This document shows positions 1-59,318 of a stretch of DNA of 64,000 nt, in pieces. The position numbers were made by a program, and so were the translations under genes. The notes beneath the pieces are model-generated. The model did no database searches. It worked only from the letters and a program-made list of their open reading frames with translations, and was not told the DNA's origin. The DNA lies in assembly GCA_963811085.1 (NCBI GenBank), contig CAWEPV010000003.1, positions 482,482 to 546,481 on the forward strand, in the 5' to 3' direction. Each line of letters begins with the position of its first letter. Within the stretch, counting starts at the first letter, position 1. This DNA is from an uncultured beta proteobacterium (GTDB lineage: Bacteria > Pseudomonadota > Gammaproteobacteria > Burkholderiales > SG8-39).

Positions 1-96
1 GAAACCGGGCGTCTGATCCGCGCGGGGTCGATCGCCGACAGCGAAGAGAGTCGCGCGCTCGCGTTCCAGCTCTGCTGGGACGGCATCCGCAGCTGA
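1..96 (+). CDS. 3' end of an upstream gene (last 31 codons, ...IADSEESRALAFQLCWDGIRS*), function unknown
   Basis: Frame 1 is open from the window edge to TGA at 94-96. Too short to assign. Confidence 0.3.
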   Translation, partial: ETGRLIRAGSIADSEESRALAFQLCWDGIRS

Positions 97-120
97 GTTT
101 CCTTTGTTCGACGTTCTTTC

Positions 121-801
121 GTGAAAGGGGCAATAGCCATGACTGGCCGAACCGTCATCATTGCAGGCGCCACCGGCCTGGTGGGCAGAGACATTCTTGA
201 GGGTCTGCTGGCCGACCGAACCGTGGTCGCGGTGCACAGCCTCGGACGCAGAGCGCCGCCGAATCAGCATCCCAAACTGGCGGTTCACGTCGTCGATTTC
301 GCCGCACTGCCTGTCCTGCCGGCCGCCGACGAGGTGTACCTGGCGCTCGGGACCACGATCAAGGTCGCCGGCAGTCAAGCTGCATTCCGTGCGGTCGACT
401 ACGACGCCAACCTTGCCGTGGCCACGGCGGCGCTCGCTGCCGGCGCCAGAAAGGCGGGCCTGGTGAGCGCCATGGGAGCCGACGCCAGCTCGAAGGTCTT
501 CTACAGCCGCGTGAAGGGAGAGCTCGAGGACGCGTTGGCGCAGATGCCATTCGAGGGGCTGGTGATCGCGCGCCCATCCATGCTGGTTGGGAACCGGGAA
601 GCCCTCGGGCAACCAACCCGGCGTGGGGAGGAGCTGGCGTTCGCCCTCGGGAAGGTGCTCGGCTTCCTGATTCCCGCGAACTACAAGCCCATCGAAGCGG
701 CAGCCGTCGCCAGGGCATTGCGGTCGGCAGTCCCGTCCGCGAAGGGCAAGAAGGTCTTGCTGTCCGGCGCGATGCAGCGAGAAGCGTCCCGTCCTCTTTA
801 G
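121..801 (+). CDS. NAD(P)-binding Rossmann-fold protein (atypical SDR / HTATIP2-like oxidoreductase)
   Basis: N-terminal VIIAGATGLVGRDIL glycine-rich dinucleotide-binding motif. 226-aa ORF. The start may be ATG 139 instead of GTG 121. Confidence 0.7.
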   Translation: MKGAIAMTGRTVIIAGATGLVGRDILEGLLADRTVVAVHSLGRRAPPNQHPKLAVHVVDFAALPVLPAADEVYLALGTTIKVAGSQAAFRAVDYDANLAVATAALAAGARKAGLVSAMGADASSKVFYSRVKGELEDALAQMPFEGLVIARPSMLVGNREALGQPTRRGEELAFALGKVLGFLIPANYKPIEAAAVARALRSAVPSAKGKKVLLSGAMQREASRPL

Positions 802-807
802 TTTCTC

Positions 808-836
808 AATGTGCCCGGCCGAGGGCCGGGCACATT
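808..836 (+). terminator. 13-bp stem hairpin (aatgtgcccggcc-gag-ggccgggcacatt) just after the stop of the 121-801 gene
   Basis: Perfect inverted repeat read directly. No clear T-tract follows, so intrinsic-terminator function is uncertain. Confidence 0.4.
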
Positions 837-924
837 GATGCGTTTGCTTGGCGGCGGGCCAATGGCAATGACGCCTGATGCAGCGCAGCCCCGGCGGTCC
901 GTCCGCAGCAGCAGCGGGTTAGCC
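834..924 (-). repeat. attC of cassette 5 (terminal attC, R' box degenerate)
   Basis: Minus strand reads GGCTAACCCGCTGCTGCTGCGGACGG...GGCCCGCCGCCAAGCAAACG. It is closely similar to the attC at 1673-1760, but the distal GTTATGC box is replaced by CATCAAT. Confidence 0.55.
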
Positions 925-965
925 GAATCCTTGATCTTGCGCTCGATCTTCTCGACCTTGCCCAT
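925..965 (-). pseudogene. Truncated antitoxin remnant (MGKVEKIERKIKD...), paralogue of the 2006-2206 antitoxin, fused directly to an attC
   Basis: The first 13 codons and about 40 nt of 5' leader match the start of cassette 3. The coding sequence then runs straight into the GGCTAAC R'' box. Confidence 0.6.
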
Positions 966-997
966 GTTGTCAATATAGCGCACCGAGGTTTTCTGAC

Positions 998-1084
998 GGC
1001 TAACGTGGAAGTGTGCGGCGGGCGAGCACGGCATAGAGCGACGGCGCTAGGCTTCCGCCCGTCCGCACCACTGCCATGTTATGC
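998..1084 (-). repeat. attC of cassette 4
   Basis: GCATAAC (minus, 1084-1078) ... GTTAGCC (minus, 1004-998). The arms ggctaacgtggaagtgtgcggcgggcg / cgcccgtccgcaccactgccatgttatgc pair imperfectly. Confidence 0.7.
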
Positions 1085-1342
1085 CGCAGACTCAACCTGC
1101 GATTCCCAGCCTGGAAACACGAGTACGGCTGGGTGGCACTTGAGCGCCTTCGCGAGCACCTTGGCGCGCTCTACACCAAGGCGCACGCGGTCATTTTCGA
1201 TCGCTGACAGCGTCGCTTGCGGAATACCCGTGCGCTGCGCGAGCTGAGTTTGGCTGAGGCCTTGCAGCTCTCGGATGATCCGCACCGACTCGCCGACGGA
1301 TACGTTGGCCCGCTTTTTAGCGCGGCGAAATTCACTCATCAA
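1079..1342 (-). CDS. XRE-family helix-turn-helix antitoxin (HigA-like)
   Basis: HTH segment LQGLSQTQLAQRTGIPQATLSAIENDR. ATGA overlap with the upstream toxin gene. The TAA stop lies inside the attC R'' box. Confidence 0.8.
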   Translation of the reverse strand: MMSEFRRAKKRANVSVGESVRIIRELQGLSQTQLAQRTGIPQATLSAIENDRVRLGVERAKVLAKALKCHPAVLVFPGWESQVESAA

Positions 1343-1620
1343 GGTCTCCGATAGTCATGGGCGGTAATTGAAATCACTTGAAATAACTGGAGCTCAGGGG
1401 CGGTTCGGTAGATCACGCGATACTGGTCTCCAAGACGCGAAGATCGGTGACCTTTCCACTCTCCGGACAGCGCTTCGTCGTGAAACCCCTTGATCAGACG
1501 AAGGCCGGGTGGTCCGGAAAGCATCGCGATGTCCTTCCACTTCTCATATCGCTTGAGGATATCTCGCGGAAGCGAAGATGCCTGCTTGTCGACCCGGCGA
1601 TGCTCCTCGATCCGCCACAT
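1339..1620 (-). CDS. RelE/ParE-superfamily toxin (HigB-like, toxin-first order)
   Basis: 93-aa basic protein with an RelE-like C-terminus (...GDQYRVIYRTAPELQLFQVISITAHDY), coupled to the XRE antitoxin. Confidence 0.7.
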   Translation of the reverse strand: MWRIEEHRRVDKQASSLPRDILKRYEKWKDIAMLSGPPGLRLIKGFHDEALSGEWKGHRSSRLGDQYRVIYRTAPELQLFQVISITAHDYRRP

Positions 1621-1671
1621 GCCATATTGTGCCTATACCATAAATAGCATGTCAAGGCGTCAAACCTTTGC
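1621..1671 (-). promoter_or_regulatory. Putative cassette-internal promoter for the HigBA-like module
   Basis: Minus strand reads TTGACGCCTTGACATGCTATTTATGGTATAGGCACAATATGGC-ATG. There are tandem -35-like TTGACG/TTGACA hexamers and several weak -10 candidates. Confidence 0.35.
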
Positions 1672-1672
1672 G

Positions 1673-1760
1673 GCATAACGTGTTGCTCTGCGGCGGGCCG
1701 GCAGGGACGGAGGATGAGGCGAGATGCTGTTGGCCCGTCCGCAGCAGCAAAGGGTTAGCC
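1673..1760 (-). repeat. attC of cassette 3
   Basis: GGCTAAC (minus, 1760-1754) ... GTTATGC (minus, 1679-1673). The arms gcataacgtgttgctctgcggcgggcc / ggcccgtccgcagcagcaaagggttagcc are complementary with bulges. Confidence 0.75.
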
Positions 1761-2009
1761 GATCAGCTTGTCGTACTCTGCGTGCGGCCCGATCCAGAAC
1801 CACACGATGCCGTCTGCCGTTTCCACGCCCACGGCGCGGTAACGGATTCCAACGCGCGCCGAGTAGAACCGGCCGACTTTCTTTAAGTGAAGCGAGGGAT
1901 GCCGAGAATCGCGTTTCAGCTGCTCGAAACAGCGATCGGCGAGACGTTGAATTGGTATCGGCAGCGACCGATAGCTTTGCCAGAACGCCGGCGAGGTGTG
2001 ATGATTCAA
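1755..2009 (-). CDS. ParE/RelE-like toxin
   Basis: 84-aa protein (...HLKKVGRFYSARVGIRYRAVGVETADGIVWFWIGPHAEYDKLIG) overlapping its antitoxin by 4 nt. The TAA stop is embedded in the attC R'' box. Confidence 0.7.
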   Translation of the reverse strand: MNHHTSPAFWQSYRSLPIPIQRLADRCFEQLKRDSRHPSLHLKKVGRFYSARVGIRYRAVGVETADGIVWFWIGPHAEYDKLIG

Positions 2010-2206
2010 AACTTCGTGGTTCTACCGGATTCATGGGCCTTTAGCGCCGTGTCGGCCAGCGCATCAAGTTTTCCGGCATGGACATCCGCTTCAAACTGGC
2101 GATCCCACGCTTCGGCATCAAACGCAGCGAACCATTCCCGCAGCTCCGTCATTTCGTCGGGAGACAGGTCCTGGATTTCGCGTTCAATCTTCTCAACCTT
2201 GCCCAT
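2006..2206 (-). CDS. Small addiction-module antitoxin component
   Basis: MGKVEKIEREIQDLSPDEMTELREWFAAFDAEAW... is typical of small helical antitoxins paired with ParE-like toxins. ATG 2206 is preferred over the GTG at 2224 used by the track. Confidence 0.65.
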   Translation of the reverse strand: MGKVEKIEREIQDLSPDEMTELREWFAAFDAEAWDRQFEADVHAGKLDALADTALKAHESGRTTKF

Positions 2207-2239
2207 TGCGTCAGTATACCGCACCGATATATTTCTGAC

Positions 2240-2336
2240 GGCTAACGTCCGCAGTCAGCGGCGCGCCGCGTGGCGCGGCCCGTGCCCTGCACGGGACGTG
2301 ACACGCGAGTGCGTCCGCTGCAACGCGTAGTTAGGC
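2240..2336 (-). repeat. attC of cassette 2
   Basis: GCCTAAC (minus, 2336-2330) ... GTTAGCC (minus, 2246-2240) with imperfectly pairing inner arms. Confidence 0.65.
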
Positions 2337-2748
2337 TGCACGCCTGATCCGCATGTGCTCTTCCGGTCCGAAGCGGTCGAACACGTAGTGAACGATGGAG
2401 ACTCCGGGAAGACGCCACTCGTGAAAAGGGAGAGCCCTCGTCGCCGGGCTTGGAGGATGACGGAGGACCGAAGGCTCGCTCGAAGTGCCGCTGGAACTGT
2501 TCGAACGACGCGCGCTGGTCGGGATACGCGGTCCGGAAGAACTCAAGCTCCGAGAGGCCACCGCTGGACCCGCGAAAGTGGAAGCCGAGCATGCAGTGCA
2601 GGCCATCGAGGACGGTGACCGGCCGCGTGCAATACGCGCGGGTGACGTGGTGGACGTCCGGAATGAGAGCCTTTAGTTCCGCTTCGGTGATGCCCCAGGG
2701 CACCGACACCGCAGGGTCCTCGATTGTGAACACTTCGCTGATCTCCAT
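2331..2748 (-). CDS. Cassette-encoded hypothetical protein (about 138 aa after correcting a 1-nt frame break near 2424-2430)
   Basis: The N-terminal 108 aa are in the frame of ORF 2242-2748. The C-terminus (HEWRLPGVSIVHYVFDRFGPEEHMRIRRAA*) is in the frame of ORF 2331-2606 and ends with TAA inside the attC R'' box. The switch occurs at a cccTTTT run. No recognisable family. Confidence 0.5.
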
Positions 2749-2763
2749 GCGTCGCTCCGTGCA

Positions 2764-2855
2764 GCCTAACGTCCGAACTCAGGGGCGCCGCTCAGCACGC
2801 CGCTTTGCGTACTTACGTTGCTCATCGCGGCGTCCCCTGGAGTGAGTCGTTCTCT
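2764..2855 (-). repeat. attC of cassette 1 (R'' box weak)
   Basis: GTTAGGC (minus, 2770-2764). Inner arms aacgtccgaactcagggg / cccctggagtgagtcgtt pair. The distal box AGAGAAC is a poor match to RYYYAAC. Confidence 0.5.
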
Positions 2856-2942
2856 CGCGAGACGGGCCACTTGGTTGACATAGGCTCGATCTGCGAACAG
2901 CTGTCAACGCGGTCCTCAGCACCCGCGTTCGAGTCCATTACG

Positions 2943-3006
2943 GCGTAGCGTTGAGAGCTGTTCGCCTCAAGAGCTTGCTCTTGTGCGACAGCTCTCAACG
3001 CTACGC
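2943..3006. repeat. Nested perfect palindrome: 19-bp arms (gcgtagcgttgagagctgt / acagctctcaacgctacgc) enclosing a 7-bp inner palindrome (caagagc tt gctcttg)
   Basis: Read directly from the sequence. Lies in the ORF-poor first cassette. Confidence 0.9.
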
Positions 3007-3152
3007 TGTCACCTCGGGCGCTTGTGCCTCGCACCGGGCTGCCCCCTTTCGTCCCTATCGCCTCTATCAGCACCGTGGCGCGTCTCGTCGACGGGAACGT
3101 TATATGGATACGAAAAAGGTCTAGATAGTATGGTCATCGTCGGATAGCGGGA

Positions 3153-3184
3153 CGTCAACGCCTCTTGAGATCAATGCGTTAGGT
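3153..3184 (-). other. Candidate attI recombination site
   Basis: Minus strand reads ACCTAAC-N18-GTTGACG, located 40-70 nt upstream of and divergent from intI. The exact crossover point is not verifiable here. Confidence 0.4.
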
Positions 3185-3223
3185 TGTGTTGGCGCAAATC
3201 GACAGCGGGATATCCGGCAAAAA

Positions 3224-4261
3224 ATGGGACAAGACACTGAATCTCCAGCGGATGTGGATTCGGGGGCGGACAAAGCGACAAAATCGCGCCTGATCGATCG
3301 GGTGCGCGAGGCGATCCGCTCGCGGCACTACAGCCGGCGCACGGAGAAGACGTACTGGTACTGGATACGGTTCTTCATCCGCTTTCACGGCATGCGTCAC
3401 CCTGCCGAGATGGGCGGCGCGGAGGTGCAGGCCTTCCTTTCCTGGCTCGCGACCGAGCGCGACGTGGCGGCGGCGACGCAGAACCAGGCGCTGTCGGCGC
3501 TGTTGTTCCTCTATCAGAAGGTGCTCGGCCAGGAGCTGCCGTGGCTCGATGGCATTTCGCGCGCGAAGCGCCCGGTACGCCTGCCCGCGGTGCTGACCGA
3601 GGCGGAGGTGCGGCGTCTGCTGTCGCAGCTGCGCGGCGTTAAGTGGTTGATGGCGAGCCTCCTGTATGGCTCCGGCCTGCGCCAGATCGAATGTCTATCG
3701 TTGCGCGTCAAGGACGTGAACTTCGCCTACCGGCAGATCCTTGTGCGAGACGCGAAGGGCGGCAAGGACCGGGTGACGATGCTGCCCGAAGGGGTGATCG
3801 AGCCGCTGCAGGAGCATCTCGGACGCGTGCGCGTGCTGCATCGGCGAGATCTCGCCGAGGGGTTCGGCGAGGTTTCCCTGCCCCACGCGCTCGCGCGCAA
3901 GTATCCGCGCGCCGGCTGCGAGTGGGGCTGGCAGTTCGTGTTCCCGTCGAAGAACCGCTCCGCCGACCCGGAGACCGGCGTCATCCGGCGCCATCACGTC
4001 TATCCCGACACATTGCACCGTGCCGTCAAGCAGGCCACGGCCGCCGCGGCGATCGTCAAGCCGGTGAGCTGCCACACGCTGCGCCATTCGTTCGCGACGC
4101 ATCTGCTCGAGCGCGGGCAGGACATCCGCACGGTGCAGGAGCTGCTGGGGCACTCGGACGTCTCGACCACCATGATCTACACCCACGTGCTCAACCGCGG
4201 CGCGCGCGGCGTGAAGAGTCCGCTCGACCGGCTGGAACAGCCGGCGGCGCGCTACGCGTGA
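3224..4261 (+). CDS. intI: Integron integrase
   Basis: Tyrosine recombinase boxes ([26 protein letters not shown]) plus the IntI-specific extra segment [24 protein letters not shown]...GVIRRHHV. N-terminus [23 protein letters not shown]. Confidence 0.95.
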
Positions 4262-4274
4262 ACCGGGGGCGCGC

Positions 4275-5441
4275 CTAGTACGACTTCGGCAGGCCGAGCA
4301 CACGCTCGGCGATGAAGCTCAGGATCAGCTGCGGCGTCACGGGCGCGATGCGCCCGACCAGCGACTCGCGCAGGTAGCGCTCGACGTGGTACTCCTTGGC
4401 GTAGCCGTAGCCGCCGTGGGTCATGATCGCCTGCTGGCAGGCGTCGAACGACGCTTCGCCGGCGAGGTACTTGGCCGCGTTGGCCTCCGCGCCGCAGGGC
4501 TTGCCCTGGTCGTAGAGCCAGGCGCCTTTGAACACCATCAGGTTGGCGGCCTCAAGGTTCATCCAGTTGCGCGCGAGCGGGTGCTGGATGCCCTGGTTCT
4601 TGCCGATCGGGCGGTCGAACACGATGCGCTCCTTGGCGTACGCGGCGGCGCGCTTGAGCGCGCAGCGGCCGAGCCCGACCGACTCGGCGCCGATCAGGAT
4701 GCGCTCGGGGTTCATGCCGTGCAGGATGTACTCGAAGCCGCGGCCTTCCTCGCCCAGGCGGTCTTCTTCCGGCACCGGCAGGCCGTCGAAGAAGACCTGG
4801 TTCGAGTCGACCGCTTTCCTGCCCATCTTCTCGATCTCGCGCACCTCGACGTATTTGCGGTCGAAGTCGGTGTAGAACAGGGTCAGCCCCTGGGTCGGCT
4901 TCTTCACCTCCTCCAGCGGCGTGGTGCGCGCCAGCAGCAGGATCTTCTCGGCCACCTGCGCGGTCGAGATCCAGACTTTCTGCCCGGTGATGTGGTACTT
5001 GCCGCCCTTCTTGTCGGCGCGGGTCTTGATCCGGGTCGTGTTCAGGCCCGTGTTCGGCTCGGTGACCGCGAAGCAGGCGCGCTCGCGTCCGGCGATCAGG
5101 CCGGGCAGCATGCGCTTCTTCTGCTCCGGGGTGCCGAACACCACCACCGGGTTCAAGCCGAAGATGTTCATGTGCACCGCCGACGCCCCGGAAAAGCCCG
5201 CACCCGACTCGGCGATGGCCTGCATCATCACCGCCGCCTCGGTGATGCCCAGCCCCGAGCCGCCGTACTCCTCCGGCATCGCGATGCCGAGCCAGCCGTC
5301 CTTGGCGAGCGCCTGGTGCAGCTCGGACGGAAAGCCGCCCTGCTTGTCTTTCTTCAGCCAGTACTCATCCGGGAAGCGCGCGCAGATCCTGTCGATCGCC
5401 TCGCGGATCGCGTCCTGCTCGGGGCTGAAGCCGAAGTCCAT
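4275..5441 (-). CDS. Acyl-CoA dehydrogenase
   Basis: 388 aa with typical ACAD blocks (CFAVTEPNTGLN, GQKVWISTA, YLRESLVGRIAPVTPQLI). Confidence 0.9.
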   Translation of the reverse strand: MDFGFSPEQDAIREAIDRICARFPDEYWLKKDKQGGFPSELHQALAKDGWLGIAMPEEYGGSGLGITEAAVMMQAIAESGAGFSGASAVHMNIFGLNPVVVFGTPEQKKRMLPGLIAGRERACFAVTEPNTGLNTTRIKTRADKKGGKYHITGQKVWISTAQVAEKILLLARTTPLEEVKKPTQGLTLFYTDFDRKYVEVREIEKMGRKAVDSNQVFFDGLPVPEEDRLGEEGRGFEYILHGMNPERILIGAESVGLGRCALKRAAAYAKERIVFDRPIGKNQGIQHPLARNWMNLEAANLMVFKGAWLYDQGKPCGAEANAAKYLAGEASFDACQQAIMTHGGYGYAKEYHVERYLRESLVGRIAPVTPQLILSFIAERVLGLPKSY

Positions 5442-5444
5442 TGT

Positions 5445-6594
5445 TCAGTGCGCCTTGACCGCGCCCGAGCGCACCAGGTCCGCGATCTCGGCGTCGTCGA
5501 AGCCGAGCTCGACCAGCACCTCGCGGCTGTGCTCGCCCGCGCGCGGCACGCCGCGCCGCAGGCTCGCGCCGCGGCGCCCGTCGGCCCAGCCCGGGAAAGG
5601 CGGCGAAGTCCTCGCCCTCGGCGCGCGCCACCGTGCCGCGCGCGCGGATCTGGGGCAGCGCGGCCGCCTCGGCCGGCGTCAGGCAGCGGTCGACCGGAAC
5701 GTCGTTCGCCTCGAGCAGCGCGATCCATTCTGCGGAGGGTTTGGATTTCATGGTGTCACTCAATTTTCTTGAAAGCACGTCCCCATTGGCGCGCCGCTTC
5801 GCGTCGCTCGAGTATTCCTCGCCCTCGAAGCCGGGCACGCAACGCGTGAACTTGCGCCAGAAGTGCTGCTCCAGGATGCCGAGCGTCAGGCGCGCGCCGT
5901 CGGCGCATTCGAACACGTCGTTGACCGGGAACAGGTGCGCGCGCGGATCGCCGCCCGGGGCGAGGCCGTGGCGCATCGCGGCCCAGAAGAAGCCGGCCTC
6001 GAACAGCGACAGGTCCAGCCGCGCGCCGCGCCCGCTGCGGTTGCGCTCGGCCAGCGCGGCGAGCAGCGCGATCGCCGCGCACGAACCGCCCGCCATGTCG
6101 GCGACCGGCAGCGACGAGCGCGTCGGGACGCCCAGCCACTGCCCGGGAAAGGCGAGCCCGCCGCCGGCGGCGAGGTAGTTCAGGTCGTGCCCGGGGCGTT
6201 CGCGCCACGGGCCGCTGCCGCCGTAGCCCGAGAGCGCGCAATAGATCAGGCGTGCGTTCGATTGCGCAAGCGTCTCGTAGTCGATTCCCAGGCGCTCGGC
6301 CACGCCGGGCCGGAAGCCCTCGATCACGATGTCGGCCTGCGCCGCGAGGCGCGCGACCACTTCTTTCGAGCCTTCCTGCTTGAGGTCGAGCGCGAGGCTG
6401 CGCTTGTTGCGGTTGCCGCTGCGGAACTGCAGCGGCAGGTAGCCGCGGCAGGGGTCGCCCGCGGGCGGCTCGACTTTCAGCACCTCGGCCCCCAGGTCGG
6501 CGAAGATCGCGGCCGCGAACGGGCCCGGCACGAACATCGAGAAATCGACCACCCTGACGCCGGCGAGCGGCTGCCAGGCCTGAGCCATGTTCAT
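5445..6594 (-). CDS. Family III CoA-transferase (CaiB/BaiF type), 1-nt frame break near 5589-5596
   Basis: N-terminus LAGVRVVDFSMFVPGPFAAAIFADLGAEVLKVEPP. After FPG at the cccggg run, the conserved C-terminus WADGRRGASLRRGVPRAGEHSREVLVELGFDDAEIADLVRSGAVKAH* continues in the +1 frame. Confidence 0.85.
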
Positions 6595-8766: not shown

Positions 8767-9935
8767 GGGTCGATTTTCGCCGTTTGCGCCGTGCCTGCGT
8801 TGAGCTGAGTCAAGTCCGCGCGCCCGAGCAGGAGGTCGACCAGCTCGCGCACCGGGCGGATCGCACTGCCGAAGGGCACGCTCTCGGAGCCGCGAAAGAA
8901 CAGGCCGTGGTCGACGTCGCCGCTCAGCGCGGCGGCGAGGTGGTGGTCGATGCAGAACTGGCCCATGGCCGGAATGCCGTCGCGCAGCCCGCACTGCGCC
9001 AGGCACTCCCAGGCGAGGGTGCAGTTGCGCGCGTGCGCGCGCTGCTTCAGCCCCTCGAGCATTTTCAGGTAATTGGCCAGCCAGGGCGTGCGCACCGCGC
9101 GCGCTGGCAGGCCGGCGACGCTCATGAACACCACGATGTCCTGCGGCGTGGCCTCGGCCAGCACGCGCTTGAAGTTCGGGTGCGCGTCGCACTCCTCGGT
9201 GACCGCGAACGCGGTGCCGACCTGCACCGCATCGGCGCCGGCATCGAGCGCCGCGGCGACGCGCGCGGGCGAATTGACTCCGCCGGCGGCGATTAGCGGC
9301 ACGCGGTCGGCGTCCAGGCCCTGCGCGTGCAGCGCGGCGCGAATCTCGGGGATAACGCGCGCGAAGTCGAAGCGTTCTTCGGCGACCTGCTCCACCTTGG
9401 CGGCGCCGAGGTGGCCGCCGGCGTAGCGCGGATGCTCGATCACGATCGCGTCGGGCGCGCGCCGGTGCCTGAGCCAGCGGCGCACGATGAGCGACGCCGC
9501 GCGCGCCTCGGACACGATCGGCACCAGCGCGACGCGCGGGAAATCGCGCGCCAGCTCCGGCAGGTCCATCGCCAGCCCGGCGCCGACCACGATCGCGTCG
9601 GCGCCGCTCTCGCAGGACTGGCGCACGTAGCCGGCGTACTGCGATACCGCGCGCATGACGTTGACCGCGATCATGCCGCGCCCGCCCGAAACTTCGCGCG
9701 CGGCGCGGATTTCCCTGTCGAGCGCGGTCAGGTTGGCCTGCTCGATCGTGGCGCGGTCGCGCGAGCGGCCGGTGGCGCGCATCAGGTCCGGGTGGTGGCG
9801 GCGCAGGTCGACGCTCGAGATGGTGCCGACGCAGTCCTCGCGCGCCACCGCGCCCGCCAGGCGATGCGCCGAAACGCCCACCCCCATTCCACCTTGCACC
9901 AGAGGCAAAGCCTCGAGCGCGCCGATCTTCAGCAT
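8715..9935 (-). CDS. Nitronate monooxygenase / NAD(P)H-dependent flavin oxidoreductase (NMO family)
   Basis: PLVQGGMGVGVS and IAAGGVNSPARVAAALDAGADAVQVGTAF motifs. The 3' tail overlaps sirB2 by 52 nt, so the true stop is uncertain. Confidence 0.8.
   Translation of the reverse strand: MLKIGALEALPLVQGGMGVGVSAHRLAGAVAREDCVGTISSVDLRRHHPDLMRATGRSRDRATIEQANLTALDREIRAAREVSGGRGMIAVNVMRAVSQYAGYVRQSCESGADAIVVGAGLAMDLPELARDFPRVALVPIVSEARAASLIVRRWLRHRRAPDAIVIEHPRYAGGHLGAAKVEQVAEERFDFARVIPEIRAALHAQGLDADRVPLIAAGGVNSPARVAAALDAGADAVQVGTAFAVTEECDAHPNFKRVLAEATPQDIVVFMSVAGLPARAVRTPWLANYLKMLEGLKQRAHARNCTLAWECLAQCGLRDGIPAMGQFCIDHHLAAALSGDVDHGLFFRGSESVPFGSAIRPVRELVDLLLGRADLTQLNAGTAQTAKIDPCLSSSGSSRSTLALSV

Positions 9936-59230: not shown

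Positions 59231-59318
<88 letters not shown>

Follow-up and report, generated by a model that had tools for sequence, protein, structure and literature searches.

A five-cassette chromosomal integron from an uncultured betaproteobacterium, with a hairpin-forming cassette that lacks an open reading frame beside attI

Introduction

Near the start of a 64,000-nucleotide (nt) stretch from an uncultured betaproteobacterium (GenBank assembly GCA_963811085.1, contig CAWEPV010000003.1, positions 482,482 to 546,481; hereafter the window), a gene for a tyrosine recombinase diverges from a row of palindromes. Do the gene and the palindromes form a complete integron, of what kind is it, and what does it carry? 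The region 834-4261 is very probably a small chromosomal integron of ordinary type, with five cassettes, in an uncultured betaproteobacterium of high guanine plus cytosine (GC) content, probably of the Burkholderiales. The integron is complete: intI is divergent from the five cassettes, all of which lie on the minus strand, and an attI is present. Its kind is already known, and it adds a well-delimited example from an uncultured lineage, with an attI boundary that lends itself to experiments and with cassette-swap variants that occur in nature. The first cassette, which has no open reading frame (ORF), is the part of the locus that deserves most attention.

The integron integrase

The ORF at 3224-4261 (plus strand) encodes an intact protein of 345 amino acids (aa), IntI, that matches the NCBIfam model TIGR02249 'integron integrase' with 477.1 bits (cutoff 265), as well as Pfam PF13495 and PF00589. 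In a full-length alignment to the Vibrio cholerae integrase IntI4/VchIntIA (PDB 2A3V), residues 23-337 are aligned unbroken (E 2e-88), whereas structures of Xer recombinases cover only residues ~15-199 and 265-328. Because the Xer structures skip residues ~200-264 and the alignment to 2A3V is gap-free there, these residues constitute the IntI-specific segment. The models for XerC and XerD score 139-143 bits against cutoffs above 329, and the class-1-type equivalog NF011946 scores 398.7 bits, under its cutoff of 435, so the protein is not of the IntI1 type.

The motifs GSGLR, KGGK, HTLRH, LGH and IYTHV are shared with VchIntIA in the alignment, and we take them to hold the catalytic residues R-K-H-R-H-Y, as in the rest of the family. 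The context of the intI start (AAAAATGGG) is kept in orthologs. A second intI, or a remnant of one, was sought in the window and in the related contig L081 and was not found. The first-pass annotation, made from the sequence alone, had named an integrase at this place by its tyrosine-recombinase boxes (including MIYTHV) and by an extra segment ending in RRHHV; all of the boxes are present, and the extra segment falls within the residues that the Xer structures skip.

The attC sites

We located attC sites with two covariance models. R1 was built from the five sites in the window and one from a sister contig, and R2 from 112 sites only, all of which lie beside other intI genes. An initial scan that combined regular expressions with folding was too unspecific and was replaced by these models. 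R2 matches four sites on the plus strand, which is the bottom strand of the cassettes, with E values from 1e-9 to 5e-8: attC1 (2764-2855; 54.5 bits, E 1.3e-9), attC2 (2240-2336; 47.6 bits), attC3 (1673-1760; 54.9 bits) and attC4 (998-1084; 53.9 bits). The degenerate attC5 (834-924) is matched as 833-924 with 19.8 bits (E 0.09); its 62 bits under R1 arise by construction, as the site is in the R1 training set. When R2 was run on both strands of the window at E ≤ 1, nothing beyond these five sites was found. R1 gave 170 matches at E ≤ 0.1 over 1.19 Mb (the window and other intI loci), with only the five sites in the window and about 150 in the other loci, where every plus-strand match lies upstream of intI. 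Exceptions to this orientation are minus-strand matches in L057 only. In L015, L027, L041 and L065, minus-strand matches lie downstream of intI, with the array co-oriented with the gene, and this is a known arrangement of integrons.

Covariation supports the predicted structures. The share of paired cells in the R1 alignment is 85% and drops to 34-48% if the partners are slid; of the 17 inner-stem pairs, 11 are altered on both sides. Opposite AAC, the arm of each of the five sites has two unpaired bases, one of them a T, on either side of a 6-bp stem (G2840 and T2833 in attC1, C2321 and T2314 in attC2, C1745 and T1738 in attC3, C1069 and T1062 in attC4, C909 and T902 in attC5). Counted on the plus strand from the 3' end of the GTTRRRY box, the T stands at position 23 and the second base, G in attC1 and C in the rest, at position 16. 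In published attC sites, the base at position 16 is usually G, a conserved T lies at 23 or 24, and the 6-bp stem is required (Nivina et al. 2016, PMC5027507). The geometry in the window agrees with this, with the proviso that the numbering origin of that paper may differ from ours.

Folded as DNA, three sites are far more stable than shuffled sequences (attC2, -42.2 kcal/mol, z -5.3; attC3, z -4.7; attC4, z -4.5), and in these three the plus strand folds more stably than the minus strand. Taken singly, attC1 (z -1.0) and attC5 (no stable fold) are no more stable than shuffled sequences. The R'' box of attC1 reads AGAGAAC on the top strand. The inner stem of attC5 is kept, and its outer RYYYAAC box is lost. 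At C1679, within the attC3 cleavage triplet AAC, the related contigs L081 and L082 have T (AAT). Three TAA stops (1079-1081, 1755-1757 and 2331-2333) lie inside GTTRRRY boxes, the third closing the C-terminal frame of a frameshifted gene. Much of this had been proposed beforehand: the five palindromes were listed with the coordinates that R2 recovers (four to the base, the fifth weakly), extrahelical bases were expected in their folds, and the three stops were placed in the same boxes.

The attI platform and cassette turnover

For attI, the first-pass annotation gave no coordinates. Comparison with the orthologous loci L085, L086/87 and L088, whose IntI proteins are 97, 93 and 89% identical, places the crossover at 3098|3097, with G on the top strand at 3098. 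Upstream of intI, homology begins exactly at AAC|GTTATATGGATACGAAA (3098|3099), and leftward of this point each locus differs, usually ending in CCTAAC. The boundary between conserved and variable sequence is present in four ortholog platforms, and a BLAST break at 3096 agrees with it. Read on the minus strand, that of the cassettes, the junction is ...CCATATAACG|TT. An attI with a G|TT boundary therefore adjoins intI, and the boundary point is also the left edge of the first cassette in ten contexts.

The platform between intI and the cassettes (3099-3223), delimited by homology with the orthologous loci, comprises attI and the region where the cassette promoter would be sited. A core-site-like inverted pair, CGTCAAC-N18-GTTAGGT (3154-3185), is conserved in all orthologs, as is a palindrome, GGATATCC, just ahead of the intI start (3209-3216). 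A metagenome scan with a 30-nt attI-proximal sequence returned no contig beyond one already known.

The location is chromosomal, as shown by conserved synteny with the orthologous loci at 85-91% nucleotide identity on contigs of 0.29-1.7 Mb. The orthologous intI genes adjoin the same acyl-CoA dehydrogenase and CoA-transferase genes, and this synteny points to vertical inheritance of the platform. The cassettes have a GC content of 57-64%, against 68-75% in the flanks, in line with a foreign origin.

The exact IntI protein is present on three other contigs, and close relatives of the window differ in their cassettes. In L082, with flanks 99.6-99.9% identical to those of the window, cassette 2 is replaced by a different cassette (8891-9547, against 2240-2770 in the window) with GCCTAAC and GGCTAAC at its boundaries and an attC of its own, 65 nt long. 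From 3099 on, the sequence of L083 is that of the window, and L083 carries a different first cassette (TTAGGCTGCTTG...) at the same G|TT. The more distant orthologs L085 and L088 have unrelated arrays, with at least 11 and 4 attC matches, respectively. The clean swap between the near-identical window and L082 is indirect evidence of recombination by IntI.

The attC substrates of IntI would be hairpins into which the single bottom strand (here the plus strand) folds, and IntI would recombine them with the double-stranded attI adjoining intI. New cassettes would enter between G 3098 and TT 3097-3096, and excision may proceed by recombination between two attC sites. In this reading, the platform is passed on vertically and keeps one chromosomal location, next to the acyl-CoA dehydrogenase and CoA-transferase genes. 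Its cassettes turn over even among near-identical strains. This copy of IntI is probably active at present.

The description of the region as a complete chromosomal integron, given by the first-pass annotation, thus stands for intI, attI and the five minus-strand cassettes, and it fails where it adds one homogeneous attC family in a sedentary array. The five attC sites share only 37-67% pairwise identity (attC5 is closest to attC3, at 67%). The inner motif that they have in common (GCGGCG... opposite ...CGTCCGC) is the R2 consensus, i.e., it is common to attC sites beside many unrelated intI genes, and the cassettes turn over, as the swap in L082 and the different first cassette in L083 indicate. 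The window also holds five cassettes rather than the tens to hundreds of a sedentary array.

Alternative explanations

Several observations weigh against an intact integron of ordinary type. No LexA box (CTGT-N8-ACAG, up to 1 mismatch) was found in 3099-3223 and no consensus sigma-70 promoter for the cassettes (Pc) on the minus strand of 3099-3400; a scan for consensus promoters and terminators likewise gave neither Pc nor an intI promoter (PintI), and found that of cassette 4 alone. The training sites of R2 were gathered with R1, which makes the independence of R2 partial, though those sites adjoin unrelated integrases. Two toxins encoded in the array score below the cutoffs of their families: that of cassette 3 reaches 24.0 bits against PF24732 (ParE_like), just under 24.4, and that of cassette 4 reaches 25.5 bits against TIGR02385 (cutoff 27.9). 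There are also signs of decay, in that cassette 2 is frameshifted, cassette 5 is truncated, attC5 is degenerate, and the R boxes of attC1 pair poorly where the site now stands.

The decay could mean that the locus is a relic, with a platform that is intact in sequence and inactive, and an array that deletions and point mutations, not IntI, are eroding. The frameshift, the deletion remnant in cassette 5, the lost outer box of attC5, the altered triplet of attC3 in L081 and L082, and the lack of a detected SOS box in 3099-3223 all fit this explanation. We nevertheless consider it unlikely, given that the intI ORF is complete with all catalytic motifs, that L082 shows a clean cassette-for-cassette exchange at core sites between nearly identical flanks, and that another first cassette begins at the same G|TT in L083. 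A plasmid- or transposon-borne mobile integron that happens to sit in this contig is highly improbable. Related arrays do have insertion sequences (IS) nearby, IS3 in the case of L081 and IS110/IS1111 types in those of L083 and L088. However, orthologs as distant as 89% identity have intI in the same position, next to the acyl-CoA dehydrogenase and CoA-transferase genes, the integrase falls under the NF011946 cutoff, no tni or Tn402 genes are among those called around intI, and a plasmid search with 2764-3098 gave no match.

The general resemblance among tyrosine recombinases is all that speaks for an Xer-like enzyme beside unrelated intergenic palindromes of the repetitive extragenic palindromic (REP) kind, and this reading has virtually no chance of being correct. 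It is refuted by the profile scores, by the alignment to 2A3V, by those to the Xer proteins, which alone are in two pieces and skip the IntI-specific segment, and by the R2 matches: the palindromes fit models of sites beside intI genes, have a fixed orientation, and bound units of a single gene or a gene pair. An integron thus accounts best for the region, and within it the first cassette requires separate treatment.

The first cassette

Cassette 1 (2770-3097, minus strand, 328 bp) has no credible ORF and starts with the non-canonical TTCCCG. Its body (2856-3098) is one long hairpin: the 243 nt fold as RNA with -127.5 kcal/mol (z -6.9), and both DNA strands fold about equally well. Nine contigs (L091-L099) carry the same unit of ~335 nt, at 78-98.5% identity to cassette 1. 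In all of them the left edge is AC|GTTCCCGTC and comes after an attI-type platform. These platforms fall into two sequence types and have diverged in other respects; where an IntI N-terminus is present, it is 66-82% identical to that of the window. The right edge is ...GAACG|TT, with ten different sequences beyond it, and L091 has a tandem duplicate. In 10 of the 10 contexts found, across at least 8 diverged platforms, the unit lies beside attI. Because the same two boundaries recur on diverged platforms and with differing downstream sequences, cassette 1 is a real, horizontally spread cassette. It was absent from ~170 cassette sites of 80 other integron loci. One homolog stands on a platform whose integrase gene is largely gone: in L098 (NCBI metagenome-assembled genome GCA_027317055.1), intI is reduced to its first 22 codons (1797-1862), and the platform still has cassette 1.

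The pairing has been kept during divergence. Paired cells make up 97.8% of the alignment of the homologs, and 32-41% once the partners are slid. The outer stem of 20 pairs is invariant (GTTCCCGTCGACGAGACGCGCCACGGTGCTG) and pairs the GTTC at the start of the cassette with the GAAC of its own R''; six pairs are changed on both sides in a compensating manner, three of them in the central stem of 30 pairs. Cassette 1 is therefore an element of ~330 nt that is almost fully self-paired, and rod-like when circular. The hairpin carries three GCGTTGA(C/G)AGCTGT repeats, in each of which GCGTTGAC of the platform recurs. Similarity between the body and the attI platform was rejected, as it comes down to GCGTTGAC(A), 8-9 nt, which is not significant. 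A consensus scan identified no promoter in the cassette.

We also rejected a coding function, for which an ORF of 83 aa (2825-3073) was the candidate. Protein searches with it gave only ORF calls on homologous DNA. The calls range from 57 to 121 aa, are inconsistent in frame and start, and some start outside the cassette; 1-nt indels disrupt the frame in L092, where the DNA pairing is kept. It is this variation in length and start, together with the broken frame in L092, on which we base the rejection.

It is possible, if doubtful, that cassette 1 is a functional non-coding element and not junk. Where one half of the attI R box normally reads TTAGGC, the cassette supplies its TTCCCG start, which may weaken further insertion at attI. 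Later cassettes would then enter at attC1, and this would explain a fixed first position combined with a variable second one. The long hairpin with its three repeats could also shield the array from the promoter of the platform, or serve as a binding site for IntI. Cassette 1 is thus a testable case in which structure and position, not a protein, appear to be under selection.

Cassettes without an ORF are known from other integrons, some with promoter activity (PMC6557892; PMC11014356), and are seldom described as occupying the first position (PMC6557892). Cassette 1 resembles them in its lack of a credible ORF and in its normal attC. It differs in that no consensus promoter was found in it, in that its body is one long conserved hairpin, and in its place beside attI in every context found.

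The remaining cassettes and the end of the array

Cassette 2 (2246-2769, minus strand) contains one gene (2331-2748) for a protein of unknown function. Relative to L081, in which the 138-aa protein is intact, the gene has one extra base near 2434. The extra base breaks the frame relative to L081 and to all 117 homologs, and may be real decay or an assembly error. The homologs come from several phyla, are ~138-150 aa long and are all annotated as 'hypothetical'. The protein is modelled by AF2 with a predicted local distance difference test (pLDDT) score of 95; its best PDB match in Foldseek is the DUF4309 protein YjgB, which is borderline (E 1.5e-3, TM 0.49). Searches for its function gave only a weak DUF6301 match in Pfam and no match in PADLOC.

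Two cassettes encode toxin-antitoxin pairs, which most likely stabilise the array. Cassette 3 (1679-2245, minus strand) encodes a ParE-like toxin (1755-2009) and, upstream, a small partner (2006-2224) that is a putative antitoxin by position only; the two genes overlap by 4 bp. In cassette 4 (1004-1678, minus strand), a RelE/YafQ-like toxin (1339-1620) is followed by an antitoxin (1079-1342) with an XRE-type helix-turn-helix, which matches PF01381 (HTH_3) with 58 bits (cutoff 23). This cassette has its own promoter-like sequence, TTGACA-18-CACAAT, at 1655-1626.

Cassette 5 (840-1003, minus strand) joins the initial ~76 bp of an antitoxin cassette like cassette 3 to an attC that has lost its outer box. 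Positions 925-1003 are 82% identical to 2169-2245, the start of cassette 3. With this start and with an attC most similar to that of cassette 3, cassette 5 is, by sequence comparison, a deletion remnant of a cassette 3 paralog.

Directly after the flanking gene comes an inverted repeat (806-838) of 15 perfectly matched base pairs around a 3-nt loop; it lacks a T run and overlaps the outer end of attC5. The flanking gene itself (139-801, plus strand) encodes an NAD(P)-binding protein (weak match to PF13460) and is not a cassette, as it is on the opposite strand and GC returns to 65-68%. Rfam searches of positions 1-6000 (permissive) and of the whole window (gathering thresholds) gave only a chance microRNA match on the palindrome and one tRNA (59232-59315). 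The first-pass annotation saw that the last attC has lost its GTT box and abuts the hairpin of the flanking gene, and took this as the end of the array. The site does lack the AAC/GTT triplet at its outer end, and the end of the array holds within the window; L081 and L082 show more attC sites and cassettes ~5 kb beyond its start.

Comparison with known integrons and related loci

The integron is like the chromosomal integrons of environmental Proteobacteria, for which VchIntIA/IntI4 of V. cholerae (PDB 2A3V) is the solved reference, in its IntI-specific insert, divergent intI, toxin-antitoxin cassettes, bottom-strand attC hairpins, fixed chromosomal position and vertically inherited platform. 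Unlike the Vibrio superintegrons, which under strict criteria for the sedentary type have tens of cassettes or more and highly similar attC sites, it has only five cassettes in the window, attC sites that are far from uniform, and no LexA box that we could find. With the class 1 mobile integron (attCaadA7), it shares the unpaired bases at 16 and 23 with their 6-bp stem (PMC5027507) and the G|TT crossover, but its integrase is below the equivalog cutoff, its attI is unrelated, and there are neither a transposon context nor resistance cassettes.

Outside the window, an IS1111-type element of 1315 bp is inserted in L083 (116-1430) at GCCTAAC^GTTATATGG, a single base away from the attI crossover. 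It has a transposase gene (206-1210), a downstream non-coding region and subterminal repeats (AAGGGACTTCCCC / GGGGAAGTCCTT). The DEDD transposase, the long non-coding region downstream and the subterminal repeats are as in the IS1111-attC group (ISKpn4, ISPst6; PMC11187229), and, as in that group, the insertion point is one end of a core site (GCCTAAC^GTT). Unlike members of that group, it interrupts the junction between attI and the cassette and not an attC. Candidate matches of a guide-RNA-like kind between its non-coding region and the target were limited to two 6-mers (CTAACG and GTTATA), not above chance, and were discarded.

The additional cassettes in L081 form a cluster without an integrase (1-2540). 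A RelE/MqsA-type pair lies in it, along with an attC at 2042-2131 and a further attC that an IS3-family element has split. Between this second cluster and the array are TetR, NAD-binding, ferredoxin and molybdopterin-oxidoreductase genes.

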